A program made the position numbers and the translations under genes. DNA of 64,000 bases from IMG/VR virus record IMGVR_UViG_3300023172_000016, positions 26,914-90,913 of that record. One strand, 5' to 3'. This stretch comes from a virus. How positions within the stretch are numbered: position 1 is the first letter of the stretch; each line of letters begins with the position of its first letter. This document shows, one piece after another, positions 350-10,852 of the stretch. Below the pieces are notes generated by a model that was not told the DNA's origin, made no database searches, and worked only from the letters and a program-made list of their open reading frames with translations.

Positions 350-368
350 AGTTTTTAATTTTTGTTAG

Positions 369-440
369 TAGCCCCGCCAGGAATCGAACCTGGATCAAAA
401 GTTTAGGAAACCCCCATTCTATCCGTTGAACTACGGGGCC
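369..440 (-). tRNA. tRNA-Arg(CCT)
   Basis: GGCCCCG acceptor stem, anticodon loop TT-CCT-AA, T-arm CCAGG-TTCGATT-CCTGG. Confidence 0.9.
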
Positions 441-456
441 AGCATTTATTTGTTAA

Positions 457-1134
457 TTAAATATAAGATTTTCTAAACAATGCTATAACATCCTTTGCGT
501 CATCAACAGCATCGTGTGTGACAACTTTATCCAAACCTGCTCTTTCCTTGCAAAGGCTTAGACCTGGAAGAGATTCATCATTTTTCCAATCCGTAAATAA
601 TACACTTGGATCTAAAACCCTTTGTCTAATCCTCACTAGTTGTTTCCATCTAGGAAGTCTAACTAAGAACTTCATATCGAAAGTAGCAAAGTTTTTCCCA
701 GCTGCTGATATGGTAATTGGTCTGGTTTTGTTTGTAATTGCTGGTAGCATTTTGCCATTTTTCCTCGTGACATAACCATCAGACACTGGATCGTTTAGTT
801 TAACGAAACCATTCTCTGCTAACCAATAATAGAACTCTTCTGCAACATCATCCTCATTCATGAATTTCATGCCTGTGAGTCTTTCAAGATCAAATATTTC
901 ACTATCGTCCTCGGCTGTTTGGTAATGAACAATGGATTCGATGATTTCCTTGTTCATGTTAATTGCATAAGGAGATCCCTCGATTCTTTTGTGTAAGATA
1001 GCTGCATGGAAGGTCGGAAGATCCTCCATGGGTTTAATGTTGTTGGTGTCTTCAATGACTGCACCAATTGTTAGGATCTGACAATTTTCTGGGTCAAGTC
1101 CTGTGGTTTCTAAATCTATGCTTATGTACTTCAT
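457..1134 (-). CDS. DEDDh 3'-5' exonuclease (DnaQ/oligoribonuclease-like)
   Basis: IDLETTG ExoI, NFATFD ExoII, HDAVDD ExoIII motifs. Confidence 0.85.
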   Translation of the reverse strand: MKYISIDLETTGLDPENCQILTIGAVIEDTNNIKPMEDLPTFHAAILHKRIEGSPYAINMNKEIIESIVHYQTAEDDSEIFDLERLTGMKFMNEDDVAEEFYYWLAENGFVKLNDPVSDGYVTRKNGKMLPAITNKTRPITISAAGKNFATFDMKFLVRLPRWKQLVRIRQRVLDPSVLFTDWKNDESLPGLSLCKERAGLDKVVTHDAVDDAKDVIALFRKSYI

Positions 1135-1144
1135 TTATCTCCTA

Positions 1145-1477
1145 TTATGATCCTACTTTCCTTGAATTTTTGTGATTTGTCCTTATGATTATCTCAACCT
1201 CACGGTCGTCTAAAATTCCAAAATTAACTTCTTCCTGTTCTTTCCAAGCTTTATACTGTACTACATAGTTTCCTTGTATAACTATTTCGTACTTGGAAGG
1301 CTCGTTTATAACCTCATATCTAATGAGGATACAATATGCGCTTGGGAAAGAAACCGATTTAACATCTACGACACGGTCCTCAGTTTTTTTGATTTTCTTC
1401 TGTGAGAACTTATTTACCCATTTCCAGAATCTATTTTTTCCTGGATTGCCCAATATTTTAAATTGCATAACTTTCAA
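1145..1477 (-). CDS. hypothetical protein
   Basis: 110-aa ORF in the gene string. Confidence 0.55.
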   Translation of the reverse strand: MKVMQFKILGNPGKNRFWKWVNKFSQKKIKKTEDRVVDVKSVSFPSAYCILIRYEVINEPSKYEIVIQGNYVVQYKAWKEQEEVNFGILDDREVEIIIRTNHKNSRKVGS

Positions 1478-1538
1478 TGACTGGTGTATCTTTCTATCCT
1501 CAATAATAGCATTGTTTCCCGTAATAAAAAAACGAGCA

Positions 1539-1565
1539 CAAAAAAGGCCTCAATATTTGAGACCC
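1539..1565 (-). terminator. intrinsic terminator
   Basis: GGGTCTCAA-ATA-TTGAGGCC hairpin followed by a T run on the minus strand. Confidence 0.6.
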
Positions 1566-1590
1566 TTAATTTTCTGTGAGTTTATAACTC

Positions 1591-1782
1591 TTAGATGAAT
1601 AGAATCAAATCACCAAACGAATCCCAATCACCATTGTCCTTTTCAGATTCTTTATCCGAATCATCATGTTCGTTCTCGGTTATTTCAGAATAGTAATCCC
1701 CGTAGGAATCATAGTGTGGAAGGAAAAAAGGATGGTCGGCTGCAGATTTTTCTGGGTTGTTAGGGGAAGGTGGCTGGTTCAT
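1591..1782 (-). CDS. small acidic hypothetical protein
   Basis: 63-aa ORF preceded by a GATAAATA motif and followed by a terminator. Confidence 0.5.
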   Translation of the reverse strand: MNQPPSPNNPEKSAADHPFFLPHYDSYGDYYSEITENEHDDSDKESEKDNGDWDSFGDLILFI

Positions 1783-1835
1783 TTTGTGGATTGGATTTTC
1801 TTGTATTTATCTTAGAATTTATTTTTTTTAAACTG

Positions 1836-1908
1836 AGGCACAGACTGGATTCGAACCAGTGAATAACGGATTTGCAGTCCGCTCCCTTAGCCACTTGGGT
1901 ACTGTGCC
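1836..1908 (-). tRNA. tRNA-Cys(GCA)
   Basis: GGCACAG/CTGTGCC acceptor, GCGGA-CTGCAAA-TCCGT anticodon arm, canonical T-arm. Confidence 0.95.
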
Positions 1909-2052
1909 TTATGCAGGTACAGGAGTTTGTATTTTAGACCCGGTTGGAAGTTGAGCGCTTGCTAATTCTTTTGCAATTATAGAATTTGGTGCTTCGATAT
2001 AAAGTCTTAGTGTTCCTCCCCTTTGTAAAATATAATCAACCCTGTATTTCAT
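1909..2052 (-). CDS. small hypothetical protein (47 aa) between tRNAs
   Basis: Manual translation MKYRVDYILQRGGTLRLYIEAPNSIIAKELASAQLPTGSKIQTPVPA*. Confidence 0.55.
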   Translation of the reverse strand: MKYRVDYILQRGGTLRLYIEAPNSIIAKELASAQLPTGSKIQTPVPA

Positions 2053-2071
2053 CTCTTAATTAATTAGTTAG

Positions 2072-2157
2072 TAGTCCGGGCGGGACTCGAACCCGCACGA
2101 GCATTACTGCTCAAAAGATTTTAAGTCTTTCATGTCTACCGATTCCATCACCGGACC
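2072..2157 (-). tRNA. tRNA-Leu(TAA)
   Basis: AAAGA-CTTAAAA-TCTTT anticodon arm, long variable arm, GCGGG-TTCGAGT-CCCGC T-arm. Confidence 0.95.
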
Positions 2158-2191
2158 AACTCCACAAATCTAAGATATGGCTGGAAAATGT

Positions 2192-3061
2192 CTACGATCT
2201 TTTTTGGTAAACTTTCAAGTTTTTAACAATCATGCTTCCCTCTGTGGGTGAATTACCATCTTTGGGCTCTTTTAATCCATTATTTAAGATAATAAATTGT
2301 TCAGCAGAATTGCACTTTAGCATTGCATGAATTTTACAAACTTGAACCAGTTGTCCGTCGAAGTAGATCTTTATAAACTTATCAGTCCAGTGAATTGCAT
2401 ACTGAACAAATCTATCCTGCGGATCTTTGACAAATATTCTAGGCGCTCCGTAATCCTTCTTACCTTCTTGCCAAGTATTCCCTGTTCCCCAATGGATGTT
2501 TGGTTTTAATGAAATATCATTTACATCCTGATCTGTATAAGCCTCAAAAATATCAATCTCTGGTGGCCAGGAGTTAGTACCACTGGTCCAAAATGCTGAC
2601 CATTGCATTTCCTCTTTTGGGAGCTGAATCTCAGCTTCTATCCAGCCATACTTAAAAGATCTTTTTGAACTTATCAAACCAGAAGCCCAAGGAAGCGTAA
2701 ACTCATCAGGAAGTTCGGGTTTTTGTTGCCATTGGGGTAGATCCTTTTTGTATATGGTTTTTGGTAAATATTTGTTTTCTAAAACCAAACCCTCCTTCGT
2801 GTTTTTAGTAGCTTCACCCGTCCAATACCACCAAAGTTGATCTGTGTGGAAAAATCCCCAGGGCTGGCCATATCTCCATTCATCCATGTTGAGTGAAGTG
2901 GAGGTGAAATCATCTTCGAAGGCTAATACATATCCCTCGGGCGGAAGAACCTTTCTTTCGCCAGTAACCTCTTTTTTAGAAAGCCTCCAAGCTTTGTATT
3001 GTAACCAAAAATTATAAAGGTTACCCAAGGGGATTCTTTGTAGATAGTGTTTAAGTACCAT
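2192..3061 (-). CDS. glycoside hydrolase family 16
   Basis: WSAFW and catalytic EIDIFE (ExDxxE) motif. Confidence 0.9.
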   Translation of the reverse strand: MVLKHYLQRIPLGNLYNFWLQYKAWRLSKKEVTGERKVLPPEGYVLAFEDDFTSTSLNMDEWRYGQPWGFFHTDQLWWYWTGEATKNTKEGLVLENKYLPKTIYKKDLPQWQQKPELPDEFTLPWASGLISSKRSFKYGWIEAEIQLPKEEMQWSAFWTSGTNSWPPEIDIFEAYTDQDVNDISLKPNIHWGTGNTWQEGKKDYGAPRIFVKDPQDRFVQYAIHWTDKFIKIYFDGQLVQVCKIHAMLKCNSAEQFIILNNGLKEPKDGNSPTEGSMIVKNLKVYQKRS

Positions 3062-3075
3062 AGATATATTTTTAT

Positions 3076-3651
3076 CTATATAACCACATTAAGAGACCTG
3101 TTGAAAATATATCCCCATATTCTTTCCATCACACAGGGAAAATCATCGTACTCCTCATGCATTTCCATAAGTCTTTCGTAAAATTCCTTAGACCTAGATT
3201 TTATTGAAGATGCAGGAACAACAAACTGAGCTCCAGCAAAAAAGGAATAAAAACCCAATCTAAAACCAAAGATTCTTTTGAAGTATTCGTCGAGTCTCAG
3301 ACCTACGTGATCCGGCCATCCATTCCCGGCAGAACCGAAAAAATATCTACCGAAGGGATTGAAATATATAAAATCCTTTCCAGAATTTTCTTGCTGAACT
3401 ATCTCTTCAAAGATTGTGTCATGGTTTGCGTGATCGAACGGATTTCCTTGAAGAAAACAATAATTTCCATCTAACCTTTCATAATTTTCGACTATAAAGG
3501 AAATGTATGTATAGGACTCTCTTCCTATATTTGGCATGAATTTGTTGTTTAGGAACTCTGAATTTTCTTCTTTCTTTATAACAAAAACTTCCCCAGGCAG
3601 GTCTCTTGACCAACTCACATCTTCCAAATATTGGGCTATTACATATTTCAT
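3076..3651 (-). CDS. DUF3431-like glycan-associated protein
   Basis: VIAQYLEDVSW, PNIGRESYTY, FLQGNPFDH, GAQFVV, MERIW motifs. Confidence 0.7.
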   Translation of the reverse strand: MKYVIAQYLEDVSWSRDLPGEVFVIKKEENSEFLNNKFMPNIGRESYTYISFIVENYERLDGNYCFLQGNPFDHANHDTIFEEIVQQENSGKDFIYFNPFGRYFFGSAGNGWPDHVGLRLDEYFKRIFGFRLGFYSFFAGAQFVVPASSIKSRSKEFYERLMEMHEEYDDFPCVMERIWGYIFNRSLNVVI

Positions 3652-3673
3652 ATTGTATTTATTTATTTATTTG

Positions 3674-3746
3674 CACGCCAGGTAGGATTCGAACCGGCGA
3701 ATAGCGGTTTTGCAGACAGATCCATTAACCACTTGGGTACCTCGCC
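3674..3746 (-). pseudogene. degenerate/chimeric tRNA-Cys(GCA) carrying the tRNA-Trp 3' end
   Basis: D-arm and GCA anticodon resemble the tRNA-Cys at 1836, but acceptor, anticodon and T stems are mismatched; last 14 nt identical to the tRNA-Trp 3' end. Confidence 0.7.
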
Positions 3747-3747
3747 A

Positions 3748-4377
3748 TTATTTTATCCATCTATGATAATCCATATTTTGCATTTGGATATCACTAAACC
3801 CAACTCTCTGAAATGCAATTGATGGAGAAAAGCAATATGCCTTACATCCCTTTTGTAAATCAGTAAGCATCACATCCAATGGTGCATTCTTTTTAGATAT
3901 CCGATCCAGAAAATTTCTAAAGAATTTACTGTTAATGCCAACAGCGTGAGTTGAGAATGTGTGATGCACTTGAACTAAATTCTCAGATACCTGGATTGGA
4001 GCCTTAGCCCCTTTATGAGAGTTGTGATTACCACCAAAATATAAAAGGTCCCAGTCACCCGGAATTTGTTGACTCAATTCACTGAAAGACTCAATCTCTG
4101 GTGTAAAGTAGCAGTCATCCTCAAGGATTAATAGATTACCAGAGTTTCCTTCTATACATTTTTCGACTATATCAATGTTGGAAAGGACCAGACCCAGCTC
4201 GGATGTTTTAATCGAGGTTTCTTTTGGATTTAGTTTCTTTCCGTCATAAGCAGAAAACCGCTGGACATTTTCTATATCCCATTTTTCGAACTCCAAAAGA
4301 GATTCTTCCCACTTGTCCATCCTCCTATCTAAATTGACACAAAATATGGATTCAAAGAAACTATTAATACCGGACAT
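3748..4377 (-). CDS. glycosyltransferase family 25-like
   Basis: CVNLDRRMDKW, RFSAYDG, LILEDD, WDLLYFGG, STHA motifs. Confidence 0.85.
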   Translation of the reverse strand: MSGINSFFESIFCVNLDRRMDKWEESLLEFEKWDIENVQRFSAYDGKKLNPKETSIKTSELGLVLSNIDIVEKCIEGNSGNLLILEDDCYFTPEIESFSELSQQIPGDWDLLYFGGNHNSHKGAKAPIQVSENLVQVHHTFSTHAVGINSKFFRNFLDRISKKNAPLDVMLTDLQKGCKAYCFSPSIAFQRVGFSDIQMQNMDYHRWIK

Positions 4378-4393
4378 ATGTTATTTATCTTAG

Positions 4394-4466
4394 CACGCCA
4401 GGTAGGGCTCGAACCCACGGCCCTCGGTTTTGGAGACCGATGCTCTACCAACTGAGCTACTGGCGT
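4394..4466 (-). tRNA. tRNA-Trp(CCA)
   Basis: TCGGT-CTCCAAA-ACCGA anticodon arm; canonical D and T arms. Confidence 0.95.
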
Positions 4467-4472
4467 AAATTG

Positions 4473-4555
4473 TTGGCAGGGACGGATTCGAACCGCCGTA
4501 CTCCGAAGAGAGCAGATTTACAGTCTGCCGCCTTTAACCACTCGGCCACCTACCA
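4473..4555 (-). tRNA. tRNA-Tyr(GTA)
   Basis: GCAGA-CTGTAAA-TCTGC anticodon arm, long variable arm. Confidence 0.95.
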
Positions 4556-4566
4556 ATTTTGTACCC

Positions 4567-5247
4567 CTATTTCTTTCTAATTACCAGTTTAATATTCGGA
4601 CCAGCGACGTAATGATCACCTAATATCTCCCATTCAGATTCTGGAAATTTACAATAGTGATAAATCATAGAACCCTTTCCCAATATTTCCTGACTTACTG
4701 TGTATTCATCAGTTTTAACAAATTCACCGTTGGAAAAGATGTTCCAGTAAATAATGGTGCCCTGCATGAAATTATCATCTACTGCAATATAGGATCCGCT
4801 TTTCATTTTATCCTTAATTGCCAAAAACTCTAAAAATCCATGGAGCATTGAAGGTTCAGGGTTATAGATGTCCAGATCCCACGAATCAAGATGTACAAGA
4901 TCTGGGGAACCTTCAAATTCCCTTAAAAACTTAACAGAATCCATCTTATAATGGTGAGAATTGTTAAATTCCGGTAAGGTCTCTTTTAAAAGCGATTCAC
5001 TTCTTTCTGAGATCTCCTGATCTATATCAACTGAGTGGAATTCCCCTCCGTTCTCAAATGCCAAATGAGCAAAAAGAAAACCGAAGCATCCATCTTCTAA
5101 ATTCTGACTAGCTCCAGTTTCTATTACACGAAGATTATCTACCGTATGTAGATCAATCAGGTTAGAAATAACTTGAGCCTGACCTATCCTATAGGAAGGT
5201 GGTGAAATGGAATTAAAGAATTCCAAAGATTTTTCCCAATTTTTCAT
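4567..5247 (-). CDS. class I SAM-dependent methyltransferase (Methyltransf_24-like)
   Basis: VIETG, SVDID, DSVKFL, DLVHLDS, IAVDD motifs. Confidence 0.75.
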   Translation of the reverse strand: MKNWEKSLEFFNSISPPSYRIGQAQVISNLIDLHTVDNLRVIETGASQNLEDGCFGFLFAHLAFENGGEFHSVDIDQEISERSESLLKETLPEFNNSHHYKMDSVKFLREFEGSPDLVHLDSWDLDIYNPEPSMLHGFLEFLAIKDKMKSGSYIAVDDNFMQGTIIYWNIFSNGEFVKTDEYTVSQEILGKGSMIYHYCKFPESEWEILGDHYVAGPNIKLVIRKK

Positions 5248-5261
5248 AATATCCGTATTTG

Positions 5262-5362
5262 TAATCGCGATTGGATTCGAACCAATTCCAGCTTTTCCAT
5301 TCAGAGTCAGCCTTACTGTTACTCAACCTTGGGAGGTGCTTCCAACCAATGGACTCGCGATT
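5262..5362 (-). ncRNA. tRNA-like RNA with non-canonical core (~100 nt)
   Basis: AATCGCG/CGCGATT acceptor-like stem and ATTGG-TTCGAAT-CCAAT T-arm; no canonical D or anticodon arm. Confidence 0.6.
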
Positions 5363-5419
5363 GTTTTTTATTACTTAGCAAAGTTAAGCGAATGTGCCGC
5401 TAAATAAAAATAGCTTTCC

Positions 5420-5608
5420 TTATTTCTTAAGGACTTTCTTAGATCTCTCTGCTAACCAGACAGCTCCACTTTTTTTGAATTCCTTCCAGTTATCAAAATC
5501 CCGTAGATCCTGTATAACCTCATCTGGAATAAGTGTGAATCCCTCAGGTGCTATGCCCTGATATTTGTAATACACAGAATTCTCGATTTTTTCTTGTATG
5601 TCTGACAA
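5420..5608 (-). CDS. hypothetical protein
   Basis: 62-aa ORF with TTG start, within the tRNA array. Confidence 0.5.
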   Translation of the reverse strand: MSDIQEKIENSVYYKYQGIAPEGFTLIPDEVIQDLRDFDNWKEFKKSGAVWLAERSKKVLKK

Positions 5609-5629
5609 TGTATCGTGGGTTATTTTTAG

Positions 5630-5705
5630 AGCCGAAGGCAGGAATCGAACCTATCGCGTCAAGACCAGTTTTGGCTGGCTTGCTCTGCCACTGAGCTACT
5701 CCGAC
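5630..5705 (-). pseudogene. tRNA-like gene with aberrant anticodon loop
   Basis: Intact acceptor and D-arm (GCTC-AGTGGCA-GAGC); GCCAG-CCAAAA-CTGGT gives a 6-nt loop; imperfect T stem. Confidence 0.6.
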
Positions 5706-5707
5706 TT

Positions 5708-5783
<76 letters not shown>

Positions 5784-5788
5784 TTTTG

Positions 5789-5862
5789 CTCCCCCACCTG
5801 GGCTCGAACCAGGGACCTATTGATTAACAGTCAACCGCTCTAACCAACTGAGCTATGGAGGA
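5789..5862 (-). tRNA. tRNA-Asn(GTT)
   Basis: GTTGA-CTGTTAA-TCAAT anticodon arm. Confidence 0.95.
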
Positions 5863-5906
5863 ATAGAAAGGTCCGGGCCCAAAAATAGCCCTTTTGAAGA
5901 CCTTAG

Positions 5907-5979
5907 TTGCGGGAGAAGGATTCGAACCTCCGACCTCCAGGTTATGAGCCTGGCGAGCTACCTCTGCTACCATCCCGCG
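5907..5979 (-). tRNA. tRNA-Met(CAT), initiator-like
   Basis: C1:A72 mismatch (CGCGGGA...TCCCGCA); CCAGG-CTCATAA-CCTGG anticodon arm. Confidence 0.9.
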
Positions 5980-5988
5980 ATATAATTA

Positions 5989-6093
5989 AAGGAAGGGGAA
6001 TCTGGCGAGTACTTGTATTTGCCCGTTTCACACCGGTACCAAGCCTCCCGTCTTTTTCCAAATCCTTGCCTCTGTGAATAAGCACCCTTCCTT
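5989..6093 (-). ncRNA. candidate structured ncRNA
   Basis: GC-richer ~105-nt spacer closed by a 9-bp terminal inverted repeat AAGGAAGGG/CCCTTCCTT, between two tRNAs. Confidence 0.4.
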
Positions 6094-6095
6094 AG

Positions 6096-6167
6096 TTGCC
6101 CCTGCTGGACTCGAACCAACACTGACGGAACCAAAATCCGCTGTCCTGCCAATTAGACGAAAGGGCA
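6096..6167 (-). tRNA. tRNA-Gln(TTG)
   Basis: GCGGA-TTTTGGT-TCCGT anticodon arm; TGCCCTT/AGGGGCA acceptor. Confidence 0.9.
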
Positions 6168-6173
6168 AGATTG

Positions 6174-6247
6174 TGGGCCCAGCAGGGCTCGAACCTGCGA
6201 CCTACTGATTATGAGTCAGTTGCTCTAACCAACTGAGCTATGAGCCC
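6174..6247 (-). tRNA. tRNA(CAT), probably Ile2 (lysidine type)
   Basis: GGGCTCA acceptor and ACTGA-CTCATAA-TCAGT arm, resembling bacterial tRNA-Ile2. Confidence 0.85.
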
Positions 6248-6253
6248 AGAAAA

Positions 6254-6306
6254 CAGGATGCTTTTTTTGAATATTTGCTGTATCAAAAAGTTGCTGTATG
6301 CATCCT
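6254..6306 (-). ncRNA. TACAGCAA stem RNA, copy A
   Basis: AGGATGC-A-TACAGCAA...GCATCCT-G; same architecture as 8875-9058 and 9063-9120. Confidence 0.6.
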
Positions 6307-6311
6307 TTTAG

Positions 6312-6393
6312 TACCGAGGGTCGGACTCGAACCGACACACCGTAAGGCGCTAGATCCTAAGTCTAGTGCGTCTACCAATTTCGCCACCCCGGC
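6312..6393 (-). tRNA. tRNA-Leu(TAG)
   Basis: CTAGA-CTTAGGA-TCTAG anticodon arm, long variable arm. Confidence 0.95.
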
Positions 6394-6465
6394 ATTTGCA
6401 GGATATCGCTTAACCTGCGGTGAGTGTTCCTTTCACCTTGTTCCCTTTCGGTACTACGATTTTTT

Positions 6466-6553
6466 TGGCGGAGAGGGAGGGATTCGAACCCCCGGTACGT
6501 TGCCGTACGCCAGTTTTCAAGACTGGAGCATTCGACCACTCTGCCACCTCTCC
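6466..6553 (-). tRNA. tRNA-Ser(TGA)
   Basis: CCAGT-CTTGAAA-ACTGG anticodon arm, long variable arm, CCA encoded. Confidence 0.95.
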
Positions 6554-6652
6554 ATGTTCGGTTTTGTTCCACATTAGCCCTACCACACAGTGGACATGGG
6601 TAGGATTTTGACTAAGGTGCTCCTAAGAGCTTTACACCGAAAACCTGATCAG

Positions 6653-6725
6653 AGCCACTGGAGGGACTTGAACCCCCGACAGGCTGATTACAAATCAGCT
6701 ACTCTACCAGCTGAGTTACAACGGC
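6653..6725 (-). tRNA. tRNA-Thr(TGT)
   Basis: GCTGA-TTTGTAA-TCAGC anticodon arm. Confidence 0.95.
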
Positions 6726-6744
6726 TTTTAGGCATTTTCCAACA

Positions 6745-6755
6745 TGTCAAAGAAC
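6745..6755 (-). promoter_or_regulatory. boxA-like antitermination site
   Basis: GTTCTTTGACA immediately upstream of the first tRNA; resembles rrn boxA. Confidence 0.45.
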
Positions 6756-6847
6756 TGTTTGATTATTTGTCTTTTTTACATCCTGTAGGATATTATGTTT
6801 CCATACAAAAACACAAATAATTACATTTTTTCTCCTCTCAGAGTTTG

Positions 6848-7284
6848 TGGAGCTGGTGGGATTCGAACCCACGTCCAGCTAGGCACACCCAGAGAATCTC
6901 ATTCACAGGCTTATCTAGTTTTTATAAACTAGCAAATCTTTGTCACTTATTTTTTTGGACTGAGATGAGTGACGATACTCAGCGGAAGACGCTAACAGCG
7001 ATCTTAAGGGTATTGGACAGTAGTCCTCAGGGTTACTGATCGACTTCCTATTGTGGGTACTTCTAACCCTTATTCCCCGATGTAACTTTCTGTTCCTAGG
7101 CAGTTACCGCCCAATGCTTAGGCTGCAAGAGCAACTTCAGCTGTTTCAACAGAACCTAGTCCTGCCAAAACGAAAAATGGATTTTCGCCATTTGAAGTGT
7201 TACATAGGTTATTAAAGAGTTTCCAATGCTAACTCTGCCTGCAATTCAAAGAACGTTCGCCTCCTGTCGATTCCATTCAGCCCC
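6848..7284 (-). ncRNA. ssrA: tmRNA
   Basis: 5' GGGGCTGAATGGAATCGAC; 3' GTGGG-TTCGAAT-CCCAC-CAGCTCCA; internal tag ORF 7189-7118 ending ALAA*. Confidence 0.95.
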
Positions 7285-7336
7285 ATTTCTGTTCAGCAAA
7301 TTTAATCTTTGTAAGGGATTAAAAAAACTGAGATAT

Positions 7337-7370
7337 AAAAAAACCCAAATCTTTTGAGAGATTTGGGTTT
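7337..7370 (-). terminator. intrinsic terminator (attenuator candidate)
   Basis: 12-bp stem AAACCCAAATCT/AGATTTGGGTTT, 6-nt loop, followed by TTTT. Confidence 0.8.
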
Positions 7371-7397
7371 AGATATATCTAGACTTCTTCTAAGTGA

Positions 7398-7478
7398 TCA
7401 CCTAAACCCAAAGTGATCCTTGCCTGTTGGGTAAAATCCCAGCGTCCAGATGCACGATATTTGATTTAAATGTTTCAT
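7398..7478 (-). CDS. putative leader peptide MKHLNQISCIWTLGFYPTGKDHFGFR (26 aa)
   Basis: Manual translation; last codons contain TTTGGGTTTAG, complementary to the terminator 5' arm; promoter motifs at 7501-7508 and 7537-7544. Confidence 0.65.
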   Translation of the reverse strand: MKHLNQISCIWTLGFYPTGKDHFGFR

Positions 7479-7573
7479 TATAGATGAAGATTACGGTTAT
7501 TATATATCAAATCAACAAAAAGTTTCTTTTGCAATGCAAATGTAATATCTTTTTCCACCATAAAAAATGAGCT

Positions 7574-8656
7574 CTAAGATTTAACAAAATTCCTAATCCT
7601 CGAAAGGTACTCTAATTGATTACCCTTAACTACATAAGAATCTCCAACTGAAATGTCTTCAGAGGATATTGTATAATCGATAATATAATCCTCAGCTTCA
7701 TCTAATACTACTCTTTCCCAAGACCATTCACCCCTATTTAATATATAATTTGAATGTAGATCCAATCCAGATCCCTTAATACTTATCCTAAATTCAGCTT
7801 TTTGGAAAGGTGAGGTTGTCTTTAAATTTACAAACAATCTTACCGAACTAAGATCTTGCTGGTCAACAAAAAGAGAGCAAGTTGAATTTGTATATAACAT
7901 AAAATCACTCTTACTCCACTGCCACTTGTGAGTATCCCAATTTAATTTAACTTCTCCACCGAAAAATTGGTTTAGATCATTTCTTGTCTTTACAATAGAT
8001 TTAGTTCTCGACTCAATCTCGCACAGGAAATCTTCAAAGACGTAGTTTGGGAATTTTTCTATGAAGTCCCTATTAGTATCATATCTTCCAAAAGGAAGAG
8101 TTAAGTATGTACCCAGATCCAATCTTATAATGAACAAATGTCCGTGGAGCCAGGGTGAATTCGGAACACGGTAGAAAAGCGATGACCTTCCAAGGGAGTT
8201 AAGTTCGGTGCAAAGTGAATTAATTTTTATGTCAAACTCTTTAGGGAATATAAAGTCCGCCTCCATATAAACCACAAAATCATGCTTTCTAGAGAATGCA
8301 GAACCTATTGCTGGCATTAAAAGGTTCACAATGGCCGGAGTATAGCCTATCCATCCCTTATAATCCCGGTAAGCTATATCTCCTGTGTTTATCCAATTAA
8401 AATTTGGTAAAGAATTCACATTTTTCAATATAGCTGGATCTAATATATCGGAATCCTTATACGAAATCTCATTCTTAGAATTGTAAAGATAGAGGTCTAC
8501 AATATCCTTAATTTCTTGGGAACAATCTAAATGACTGATGAGCGTAACATACCCGCCTAATGACTTTATAGATCCAATGATTTCTAGAAGATCCTTCTTC
8601 TTTTCTGGAGAATCCGGGAATGCTGAGATTATAAAATTGCAATCAAAGTCTATCAT
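7574..8656 (-). CDS. hypothetical protein, possibly glycosyltransferase-related
   Basis: 360-aa ORF; VTLISH and YMEAD (DxD-like) segments. Confidence 0.55.
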   Translation of the reverse strand: MIDFDCNFIISAFPDSPEKKKDLLEIIGSIKSLGGYVTLISHLDCSQEIKDIVDLYLYNSKNEISYKDSDILDPAILKNVNSLPNFNWINTGDIAYRDYKGWIGYTPAIVNLLMPAIGSAFSRKHDFVVYMEADFIFPKEFDIKINSLCTELNSLGRSSLFYRVPNSPWLHGHLFIIRLDLGTYLTLPFGRYDTNRDFIEKFPNYVFEDFLCEIESRTKSIVKTRNDLNQFFGGEVKLNWDTHKWQWSKSDFMLYTNSTCSLFVDQQDLSSVRLFVNLKTTSPFQKAEFRISIKGSGLDLHSNYILNRGEWSWERVVLDEAEDYIIDYTISSEDISVGDSYVVKGNQLEYLSRIRNFVKS

Positions 8657-8835
8657 GATCTAAATCATTTCTTTGGGATATTTCTGGGAATGCTTGTCGA
8701 AGATTTCAACCCTAGGTCCTTCTATGAAATTAACCTCGACTTTTATATTTTCAAAATCCTCCATTTATTTTTCTAACATCATCTTTTGTAAGTTGCTCAG
8801 CAATCTTTTTAGTCTAATAGTCAAGGTTGTTTCCA

Positions 8836-8869
8836 AAAAAAATCCCCAAATCATAAGAAATGGGGATTT
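8836..8869 (-). terminator. intrinsic terminator
   Basis: AAATCCCCA...TGGGGATTT stem plus T run, downstream of the stem RNAs. Confidence 0.55.
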
Positions 8870-8874
8870 AAAAA

Positions 8875-9058
8875 CAGGATCGTGATTAGTATTATTCGGC
8901 TCTGCAGCTATATCTCTCTTTACGCCAATGAGAAGTTGACGTCGTGATTTTAGTTTTGAACCAGGTCACTGATCTCCGGGTCTCGTTAGAGAGTAAGCTT
9001 GCGCTGTACTACAACTAACTCTTCATCTAGTATAGAATAGGTTTGCTGTACCGATCCT
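8875..9058 (-). ncRNA. TACAGCAA stem RNA, copy B (long insert)
   Basis: AGGATCG-G-TACAGCAA...CGATCCT-G. Confidence 0.55.
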
Positions 9059-9062
9059 TTCA

Positions 9063-9120
9063 CAGGTTTCTTTTTATATAACACTTATTGGATAGTATAA
9101 AAAATTGCTGTAAGAAACCT
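9063..9120 (-). ncRNA. TACAGCAA stem RNA, copy C
   Basis: AGGTTTCT-TACAGCAA...AGAAACCT-G. Confidence 0.6.
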
Positions 9121-9409: not shown

Positions 9410-10852
9410 TTAAATTATAATGTCTTTATACCTTTCAGAAAGAATAGTTTCGTTCATCACCTGAAGTGGCGATATAATTTCACCTTTGCAAATGCTTTTA
9501 AGAATTGCCGGCGAGAAACCGCTTACCAAAGCTGTACCAGATTCGGTGAAAGAAACCGGCACATTACCACCTCGGGATTGGATATTCCAGTAGATGATGG
9601 AAGGCATTGAGTATCCAGCTTCAGCATACATCCCTCTGACCATTTCCTGTGCAGTAGGATTCCATTCTACCTGATCAGTTTTATTCCAATAAGAGTAAGA
9701 CATAAATGTCGCACTGTCGAATTCCATGTCAGAGAGGATCAATATCTTCGTTGGCATTTCAGATGCAGGTACAGAGTTTTTAACTGCCTGATCCAATATA
9801 TGCGAAAAGGTCTTTTGGAGATCCGTGTTCATACCCCAAGCAGCTCTAGATAATTGCGAAAACCTCGACTTTAAATCACCCTTCAGTATTTGAATCTCTG
9901 GGTTAGCAGAGAAAGTTACAAAAGAGTCCTTAAACGCTCCCTCGTTTCTTTCAGAAATGTACATCCCTAAAGAGATTGCAACATCCAAGCAAGTAACATT
10001 AGAATTTCCACCAGCGGGTGTCATCATTGAACCCGAGGTGTCAACGACTGGAAGAATTCTTTCCTCGCTCCCCTCCATGTAATCAGGAAGTGCTTTCCAT
10101 TGCTCAGAGGCAAAGTCTGCATCTCCGTGTTTGAGAGTTTTGGTCACATCATAAGGATAGACTGCAGAAGCATTTACTTTTTCCTCGCCAGACCTTAATT
10201 TCTCAAGATATAAATTATATCTCTCCGAATCGTTTTTGTGAAATGCCTTAGTGTATCTTGCTGCTGCTACTGAAGGAAGCTTACCATACTCAATAGACTC
10301 CCAATCTTTAGCACACATAGCCTGCTCGACAACATTTGTGAGGCCAACCAGTGTCTTTCTATATTGCTTAGGTGTGAATCCTAAGAAGTTTCTTAGTCTG
10401 TTTGCTACCGGTCCCTTTCTAGGCATCCATTTAGCACAAAGTCCATTTTCGCTTTCGAGACCACTCTTTATTAGATCTAATGCAGGTGCTTCGAGCTTGG
10501 TGCCAATCAAAGTAAGCAAATCGTCCCATCTTCCATATTCTGGGATGAGATGTAGGTTTTTTCCTAGTATCTCTGGGTTGTCGCTTGCTAAATATGTAAT
10601 AATGTCCTTGAAGATCTGTCTTTCTCCTGCTCCACCTCTGATGTCTCTTACCCAAAAAAGAATTCTCATGGCTGTAAGTGGATCCTCGTGAAACGCAAGT
10701 GAGAAGTTTGCAATAAGTCTTTGCTTATCCTGTCCCCTCATAGCACCAATCATGAAGAATAAATCTACACAAGCATTCAAAGAAGATGAGTTGGTTGTCA
10801 TCCCATTTTCCGTGGTGATGTTCTTGGTTCTAAGTGCGTCTGCGAGCTTCAT
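9410..10852 (-). CDS. DUF2828 family protein (TROVE/Ro60-like helical domain + vWA)
   Basis: TENG, RDIRGGAGER, PEYGRWDDL, AKWMPR; vWA MIDAS DTSGSM and LSDMEFD. Confidence 0.85.
   Translation of the reverse strand: MKLADALRTKNITTENGMTTNSSSLNACVDLFFMIGAMRGQDKQRLIANFSLAFHEDPLTAMRILFWVRDIRGGAGERQIFKDIITYLASDNPEILGKNLHLIPEYGRWDDLLTLIGTKLEAPALDLIKSGLESENGLCAKWMPRKGPVANRLRNFLGFTPKQYRKTLVGLTNVVEQAMCAKDWESIEYGKLPSVAAARYTKAFHKNDSERYNLYLEKLRSGEEKVNASAVYPYDVTKTLKHGDADFASEQWKALPDYMEGSEERILPVVDTSGSMMTPAGGNSNVTCLDVAISLGMYISERNEGAFKDSFVTFSANPEIQILKGDLKSRFSQLSRAAWGMNTDLQKTFSHILDQAVKNSVPASEMPTKILILSDMEFDSATFMSYSYWNKTDQVEWNPTAQEMVRGMYAEAGYSMPSIIYWNIQSRGGNVPVSFTESGTALVSGFSPAILKSICKGEIISPLQVMNETILSERYKDIII

Follow-up and report, generated by a model that had tools for sequence, protein, structure and literature searches.

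Leader-peptide attenuators are known from amino-acid operons of Escherichia coli and Salmonella, namely trpL, hisL, leuL and pheL and the multivalent thrL and ilvGMEDA leaders. Stalling-sensing leaders are also found at genes of translation stress, as in hflXr (PMC6310831), toiL-topAI (PMC12121999), and the macrolide-induced erm, msrD and yxjB leaders (PMC6851288, PMC10314930). In Anabaena, the trn operon, an accessory array of 26 transfer RNAs (tRNAs), is induced by translational stress (PMC8421152) and has a repressor, TrcR (PMC10272220). Phage tRNAs are seen as counter-measures to tRNA-targeting defences, and when and why phages express their own tRNAs is an open question linked to this immunity (PMC10264068; PMC11464382). 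This study concerns an element that lies directly ahead of the transfer-messenger RNA (tmRNA) gene and the tRNA array of a phage, in a stretch of 64,000 nucleotides (nt), here called the window, which comprises bases 26914-90913 of the 90.9-kb IMG/VR virus record IMGVR_UViG_3300023172_000016. Judged by sequence comparison, the element is real and conserved, and it is probably a ribosome-mediated (leader-peptide) transcription attenuator that heads the phage tmRNA-tRNA operon. An earlier note made from the sequence alone had proposed such control and knew of no phage tRNA array with it; literature searches for attenuation of phage tRNA genes likewise found no published description.

Alternative helices in the leader region

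All positions are those of the window, and features lie on the minus strand unless said otherwise. The order on this strand is a 360-amino-acid open reading frame (ORF), an intergenic region of 289 nt, the tmRNA and 14 tRNA genes. Every motif that the earlier note had claimed in the intergenic region was located where the note had placed it. The leader ORF (7398..7478) has 26 codons plus TGA, starts with ATG and encodes the peptide MKHLNQISCIWTLGFYPTGKDHFGFR. It has no Shine-Dalgarno (SD) sequence and carries an A at position -3; SD-less initiation, aided by A at -3, is normal in Bacteroidetes (PMC6847099). The predicted intrinsic terminator between this ORF and the tmRNA is also present (7334..7370), with a 12-bp stem AAACCCAAATCT/AGATTTGGGTTT (7370-7341), a 6-nt loop CTCAAA and a T run; the predicted fold has about -15 kcal/mol, and no other terminator-like site occurs within 6700-7700. 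The last four codons of the ORF and the first two nucleotides of its stop codon form region 2, the antiterminator 5' strand TTTGGGTTTAGGTG (7399..7412). Its partner, region 3, TATCTAAACCCAAA (7362..7375), comprises the 5' flank and most of the 5' arm of the terminator, which in turn is made by regions 3:4. Within regions 2 and 3, TTTGGGTTTAG (7412-7402) is the exact 11-nt reverse complement of CTAAACCCAAA (7372-7362), as the earlier note had stated, and with G-U pairs the 2:3 helix reaches 14 bp (7412-7399 with 7375-7362).

Folding with simulated ribosome footprints, a check that the earlier note had proposed, was carried out with ViennaRNA on 11 representatives of the window family and on L062, a relative from a separate group described below, and it gave the expected alternative structures. 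With a ribosome placed mid-ORF on a nascent RNA that still lacks the terminator 3' arm, the 2:3 antiterminator forms in all 11 representatives and in L062, and with the ribosome at the stop codon the terminator is the sole structure formed in the 11 representatives. In the window, the antiterminator structure is predicted at -19.8 kcal/mol and is at least as stable as the terminator at -15.0 kcal/mol. In full-length minimum-free-energy (MFE) folds without a ribosome, the early ORF pairs with region 2 in several relatives. The competing local hairpin of the earlier note, GATCACTT/AGGTGATC (7396..7418; 7418-7411 with 7403-7396), encloses region 2 and does appear in the no-ribosome MFE fold of the window, but this GATCAC/GTGATC hairpin was not found in relatives and is specific to the window.

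As a ribosome-mediated attenuator, the element would work as follows. Transcription would begin at a bipartite promoter-like element, GAAAC-N13-GATATATAA(T) (7499..7526), and the 26-codon leader would be translated as RNA polymerase proceeds. A ribosome that soon arrives at the stop codon would cover region 2, the 12-bp terminator would form, and the transcript would stop before the tmRNA. A ribosome stalled earlier would leave region 2 free to build the 14-bp antiterminator with the 5' flank and arm of the terminator, and transcription would continue past the terminator into the tmRNA and tRNA genes. The alternation between helices 2:3 and 3:4 would suit any effector, and in factor-dependent antitermination the helices would be switched, instead of by a ribosome, by an RNA-binding protein of phage or host or by direct binding of a tRNA in the manner of a T-box; a phage gene for an RNA-binding protein (DUF2828/DUF7788) lies nearby. 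Such a factor would need no ORF, no fixed stop position over region 2 and no match between leader codons and tRNAs, and an Rfam scan of 7285-7573 with E up to 1 returned neither a T-box nor any other cis-regulatory family, which makes this explanation very improbable.

Relatives of the element and the constraint on its RNA

A blastn search of 6800-8700 against 50,697 GenBank phages gave no match. Relatives were reached by other routes, namely relatives of the DUF2828/DUF7788 gene in viral contigs, L003 (a locus whose leader is homologous to that of the window, with 85% identity), a tmRNA 5'-end pattern (L085), a terminator pattern (L087), and a scan of metagenomes with the terminator pattern. 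The metagenome scan returned 97 loci, 32 of which (26 unique) are followed immediately, on the same strand, by a tmRNA or a tRNA array, as are L106/L123/L173 and L208; the tmRNA of L106, L123 and L173 is of the GGGGCTGCTTGGATTTGAC type, and these three loci were counted with the RNA-gene-linked loci and not as controls. All RNA-gene-linked loci except L145 possess a short ORF of 24-46 codons without the start, which ends 20-33 nt before the terminator stem. L145 was excluded as a member; its hairpin lies inside a tRNA array, its complement is 5 nt long and its 19-codon ORF is doubtful. The arrangement of short ORF and terminator is shared by about 28 distinct metagenomic relatives in five sequence-divergent groups, and the terminator lies 14-94 nt ahead of the tmRNA or the first tRNA. 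The earlier note had suggested a search of related phages for a leader ORF with antiterminator/terminator covariation, and the leader ORF with its complement to the terminator was found across the five groups, with covariation between groups A and B.

Group A is the window type, with peptides of the form MK[HL]..QIS...GFR. Groups B and B2 encode the peptides MIHSQTYSYF...RVCVS and MLSQINISL...RVCE, respectively. Group C has a 43-amino-acid leader, with tRNA-Phe 14-16 nt past the terminator, and group D is represented by L087, whose leader of 46 amino acids contains all 20 residue types and stands before 17 tRNAs, with no tmRNA. Group E (L048/L062) has the terminator AAAAACCCTGAACC... and a 31-codon ORF, the 3' part of which, GGTTCGGGT, pairs with the 5' arm of the terminator. 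The loci of group E were reached by way of a neighbouring protein, and their terminator differs, so this group is free of ascertainment by terminator sequence.

The hairpin sequence itself recurs in phage groups A-D, which are otherwise unrelated, and at some 84 further places in metagenomes. In group C loci L103, L153, L168 and L184, the cassette stands between two near-identical terminator hairpins (AACCCAAATC...GATTTGGGTT), one ahead of the promoter region of the leader and one past the ORF. A scan of 185,579 prokaryote species genomes for the spacing from promoter motif to terminator gave 49 hits, and the full terminator hairpin was present only in L208; the other 48 were taken as chance matches of the 20-base pattern. 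L208, the sole full copy of the element in these genomes, lies on contig CALAZP010000032.1 (47.5 kb) of an uncultured Saprospirales metagenome-assembled genome (MAG). This contig probably derives from a phage that was binned together with its host, and gives a weak hint to a host among the Bacteroidota, order Saprospirales.

The places with the same hairpin served as a matched control, comprising 84 distinct places in metagenomes that lack a downstream tRNA or tmRNA. In these, the longest stretch upstream that complements the 5' arm has a median length of 5 nt; one place has 9 nt at 47 nt, and none of the 84 has a complement of at least 7 nt at 35-45 nt upstream. In the RNA-gene-linked copies, the complement measures 7-12 nt, always lies 35-45 nt upstream, and falls within the last codons of the ORF. 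The 2:3 helix also covaries. Pairs were counted in an ungapped register anchored on GGGTTT/AAACCC (MAFFT columns put the GGGTTT of groups A and B one column off), and in this register the three pairs located 3' of the core differ on both strands from group A to group B: A-T, G-C and G.T/A-T become G-C, T-A and G-C. The covarying strands are AG(G/A)T(G/A) with TCTAT in group A and GTG with CAC in group B. Within groups, one-sided changes from G.U to A-U are seen, and L177 adds one more compensated pair to the helix.

The peptides of groups A and B show no relationship, and the frame of the invariant GGGTTT differs between the two, being GGG-TTT in group A and xGG-GTT-T in group B. This indicates that what is constrained is the RNA, together with the act of translation, and not the peptide. 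From the window to L003, the ORF survives an in-frame 3-nt indel and the position of the stop is unchanged, with TGA replaced by TAG. A different explanation is a stand-alone small gene, expressed as a functional micro-protein or with the terminated leader as a small RNA, which has its own promoter and terminator and merely adjoins the RNA genes. The element does possess a conserved promoter-like sequence of its own and a strong terminator, the peptide is fairly conserved within groups with several synonymous changes, and RNA contigs cover the ORF. Such a gene is nonetheless difficult to reconcile with peptides that differ entirely between groups while the conserved nucleotides stand in different frames, with codon classes that shift position while their coverage holds (see below), or with an ORF that is invariably placed directly ahead of a tmRNA or tRNA array, and is therefore considered quite unlikely.

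Leader codons, promoters and transcripts

The leader codons were compared with the tRNA set of the phage. Two tRNAs with the anticodon CAT (Met) were left out of the scoring, and 12 non-Met classes were scored. The 25 non-start codons of the window leader include a cognate codon for all 12 classes, with an expectation of 5.9 classes under phage codon usage (P 1e-5 to 4e-5). Among 19,691 real 25-codon segments of phage genes, none reaches 12 classes, and only one of the 215 short ORFs of the genome does so. Codons 4-16 already cover 11 of the 12 classes; the codons in this run that are cognate to no scored class are ATC and ATA, and ATA would be decoded by a phage tRNA only if one of the CAT tRNAs is tRNA-Ile2. 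The AGG codon of the leader, which corresponds to tRNA-Arg(CCT), sits within region 2, and AGA is found in L003-type leaders.

In the relatives, the leaders cover 11/13 classes (L003/L083), 11/12 (L113), 8/8 (L177), 9/10 (L106), 14/14 (L153), 15/17 (L087) and 5/5 (L062), and they match their own arrays better than those from the remaining groups. Leu codons are missing from the group B leader, just as tRNA-Leu is missing from the L113 array, which does encode tRNAs for Lys, Asp, Glu, Ala and Pro; in group B2, tRNA-Leu(TAG) is in the array and CTA is in the leader. The leaders of the window and L003 differ in 16 codons, and coverage holds at 11/12 (P 0.01); codons for Asn, Tyr, Leu-TAA, Leu-TAG and Cys are each lost at one leader position and regained at another.

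Since the leader holds a codon for every non-Met tRNA class of the phage, the favoured version of the attenuator reading is a feedback sensor of the decoding capacities that the phage can replenish. In this version, for which confidence is evenly balanced, the leader would probe the tRNA pool at many codons: if any one of the tRNAs that the phage can supply ran short, the ribosome would stall, the terminator would open, and the tmRNA and the replacement tRNAs would be switched on. A host anticodon nuclease that cleaves tRNAs, or breakdown of the host tRNAs, might cause the shortage, and the codon set of the leader would be expected to co-evolve with the tRNA repertoire of each lineage.

Upstream of the leader, GAAAC-N13-GATATATAA is a putative promoter. 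It stands 20-22 nt ahead of the ATG in 17/17 group A and B sequences examined; in the window, its TATAAT ends 20 nt before the ATG, and a search of the window for extra copies found none beyond chance, this being the single full copy. The earlier note had also pointed to the GATATATA motif (7501-7508) and to TACATTTG (7537..7544) as a Bacteroidota -7-type box. The latter is present but unconserved: the homology of L003 begins downstream of it, and TAnnTTTG occurs at that place in only some relatives. The conserved element is the bipartite one.

A further box, TAAATTTG (7297..7304), lies past the terminator, 12 nt before the tmRNA 5' end; it is of the host -7 type and could be an independent tmRNA promoter, a caveat of the earlier note that stands. 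The window thus probably has two inputs, a host-type promoter for basal, attenuator-independent expression and a leader promoter gated by the attenuator. If the second box were all that mattered, the hairpin would be an unconditional terminator that ends upstream transcription, the RNA genes would be made from the TAAATTTG box, and the ORF and its complement would be by-products. The retention of such a box in most relatives of groups A and B would suit this explanation, as would tmRNA contigs far deeper than leader contigs, although contig depth is a poor measure. It leaves unexplained, however, the ORF, the fixed promoter-like motif and the in-ORF complement across five divergent groups, the negative matched control, the match between codons and tRNAs, and those relatives in which the RNA gene begins only 14-17 nt past the terminator. 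In L142/L143/L171/L174 the TAnnTTTG-like box is deleted and the tmRNA begins 15-17 nt past the terminator T run (a weak overlapping box, TATCTATG, is possible in L142), and in group C the tRNA-Phe that begins 14-16 nt past the terminator leaves no room for a second box. A separate promoter behind an unconditional terminator is thus unlikely.

The stretch is partly represented in 20 metatranscriptomic runs, and four of these were examined by contig; the studies in which the element occurs sampled salt marsh, estuary and freshwater. Contigs with the tmRNA span 6890-7276. A 151-nt contig identical to the window spans 7320-7470 and includes the leader, the terminator and at least 14 nt past the T run, and the contig of a relative spans 7338-7476; no contig joins the leader to the tmRNA, and carry-over of DNA is possible. 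The RNA data are assembled contigs, and their ends and the uncovered parts (7277-7319 and 7524-7800) are uninformative on the starts and ends of transcripts. The contigs show presence in RNA libraries and are compatible with some readthrough, as weak evidence. One contig, from run X4, has 228 extra letters in place of 17 window letters at 6448-6466, between tRNA-Ser and tRNA-Leu, and is a strain variant with an insertion in the spacer.

Taken together, the conserved architecture, the compensatory changes in the 2:3 helix, the frame shifts, the negative matched control, the footprint folds and the RNA genes 14-17 nt past the terminator in some relatives support the trp/his-type reading of the earlier note. 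Several points weigh against it. Support for the attenuator is wholly comparative, consisting of architecture, conservation, covariation, the match of codons and tRNAs, and predicted folds; from these we infer leader translation, promoter activity, conditional termination and the physiological signal. The coverage results give a Fisher combined P of 1e-10 (2.8e-7 without the discovery window), which overstates independence because the lineages are related, and coverage is not significant singly in the long L087 leader (P 0.05-0.18) or in L062 (P 0.12). For the pairing of the early ORF with region 2, a possible region 1:2 anti-antiterminator, the duplex energies were no better than those of shuffles (P 0.06-0.8); if it is absent, untranslated transcripts would default to readthrough, and termination would need a ribosome that has translated the whole leader. 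In relatives found by terminator sequence, the terminator is conserved as a consequence of the search itself. The device is not universal, since tRNA arrays in other related phages that carry the DUF2828 gene show no detectable terminator upstream of them. Finally, a TAnnTTTG-like box 12-20 nt before the tmRNA is retained in most relatives of groups A and B, though degenerate in some, and with such a box between terminator and tmRNA the RNA genes of the window need not rely on readthrough. The attenuator therefore probably modulates expression and is not its sole control.

Genomic setting and comparison with known systems

The record from which the window comes is estimated to be 32% complete at 90.9 kb, so the source is a jumbo phage. 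The 360-amino-acid ORF upstream of the intergenic region (8656-7574) matches no known family and has no relatives among viral contigs. The tmRNA, the first gene after the attenuator (6845..7284), was recognized by Rfam (RF00023, 85.4 bits, E 2e-32); it was overlooked by ARAGORN, though ARAGORN calls the tmRNA of relatives. The tmRNA tag of the relatives, GENPFFVLAGLGSVETAEVALAA, is about twice the usual length and keeps a Bacteroidota-type GEN start and the ALAA end. The 14 tRNA genes called by ARAGORN (368..6725), which are the complete tRNA set of the record, are Thr, Ser, Leu-TAG, Met, Gln, Met, Asn, Gly, Phe, Tyr, Trp, Leu-TAA, Cys and Arg-CCT. No strong terminator-like hairpin was found on the minus strand from the attenuator to tRNA-Cys; a weak 6-pair match (4064-4049) sits between the Tyr/Trp and Leu/Cys blocks. 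The next strong one is an 11-pair hairpin at 1567-1543, between tRNA-Cys and tRNA-Arg(CCT), and given this hairpin tRNA-Arg(CCT) may fall outside the unit controlled by the attenuator. Additional leader/terminator cassettes were sought before the other tRNA blocks of the window, and none was found.

A few neighbours of the array are unusual. The tRNA-Phe at 5630-5705 (-), like its counterpart L003:14521-14595, is a conserved member of the array and was given the anticodon AAA by ARAGORN in the window and '???(aa)' in relatives; its Rfam score of 28.3 bits is slightly below threshold, and it has an aberrant anticodon loop or is a non-standard tRNA. Sub-threshold Rfam matches at 5680-5741, 8827-8900 and 9063-9119 (-), to YrlA (Y-RNA-like; 27 bits), Yfr10/NsiR1 (28-30 bits) and Dictyostelium class I RNA (29.5 bits), lie among and upstream of the tRNAs and may mark structured small RNAs. 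The DUF2828/DUF7788 gene lies 2 kb upstream (9410-10852, minus strand) and encodes 480 amino acids with Pfam domains DUF2828 and DUF7788, assigned to PHROG 850 ('RNA-binding protein'); its 260 relatives among viral contigs frequently lie a few kb away from tRNA/tmRNA arrays. The TAnnTTTG boxes, the lack of SD sequences, the GEN...ALAA tag of the tmRNA in relatives and the copy in L208, whose contig was assigned to a Saprospirales MAG, suggest that the host belongs to the Bacteroidota.

If the tRNA-sensor version of the attenuator reading is correct, expression of phage tRNAs and tmRNA would be demand-driven, and attenuation of the trp/his type would extend to RNA genes and to SD-less Bacteroidota. 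The element would be a compact, portable sensor of "any of many tRNAs" and would form a circuit of counter-defence and homeostasis without published precedent for tRNA or tmRNA genes. The codon list of a leader could also give an annotation clue to the tRNAs that are important for a phage.

Among described systems, the element of the window resembles the leaders of amino-acid operons in its promoter-proximal short ORF, in the intrinsic terminator before the regulated genes, and in an antiterminator strand within the last codons that would be masked by a ribosome at the stop. As in those leaders, the codons name the supply that is regulated, and several kinds of codon are used, as in the thr and ilv leaders. 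It differs in that tmRNA and tRNAs, not enzymes, would be regulated, and in having about one codon for each of 11-14 tRNA classes in place of runs of one or two amino acids. Further differences are that the 1:2 hairpin is not demonstrable here, that the element probably belongs to a phage of SD-less Bacteroidota, and that a second promoter box stands past the terminator; the element also has no sequence similarity to any Rfam leader family.

The hflXr, toiL-topAI and erm-type leaders offer a likeness in output, since there too a ribosome that stalls in an upstream ORF prevents termination ahead of genes for the repair or protection of translation. These leaders respond to an antibiotic-bound ribosome at particular peptide motifs, whereas in the phage leader the composition points to codon or tRNA supply, and the genes downstream are those for tmRNA and tRNAs. 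T-box riboswitches likewise tie the status of tRNA to a choice between terminator and antiterminator for genes of decoding supply, but they bind tRNA directly and have no ORF, whereas the element of the window has a conserved ORF and no T-box match. The phage-tRNA studies of counter-defence provide a reason to tie tRNA expression to tRNA loss; they concern the tRNAs themselves, and no sensing or attenuation mechanism for their expression is described (PMC10264068; PMC11464382).

The nearest published biology is the trn operon of Anabaena, in which an accessory tRNA array is silent or low by default and becomes active under impaired translation. Its regulator is a ribbon-helix-helix repressor that acts on promoter-overlapping repeats, the operon resides on a cellular megaplasmid and not in a phage, and the words attenuator, leader and terminator are absent from the text of the paper. 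In comparison with all of these systems, the element of the window most probably represents a known regulatory logic, leader-peptide attenuation, newly applied to phage RNA genes.

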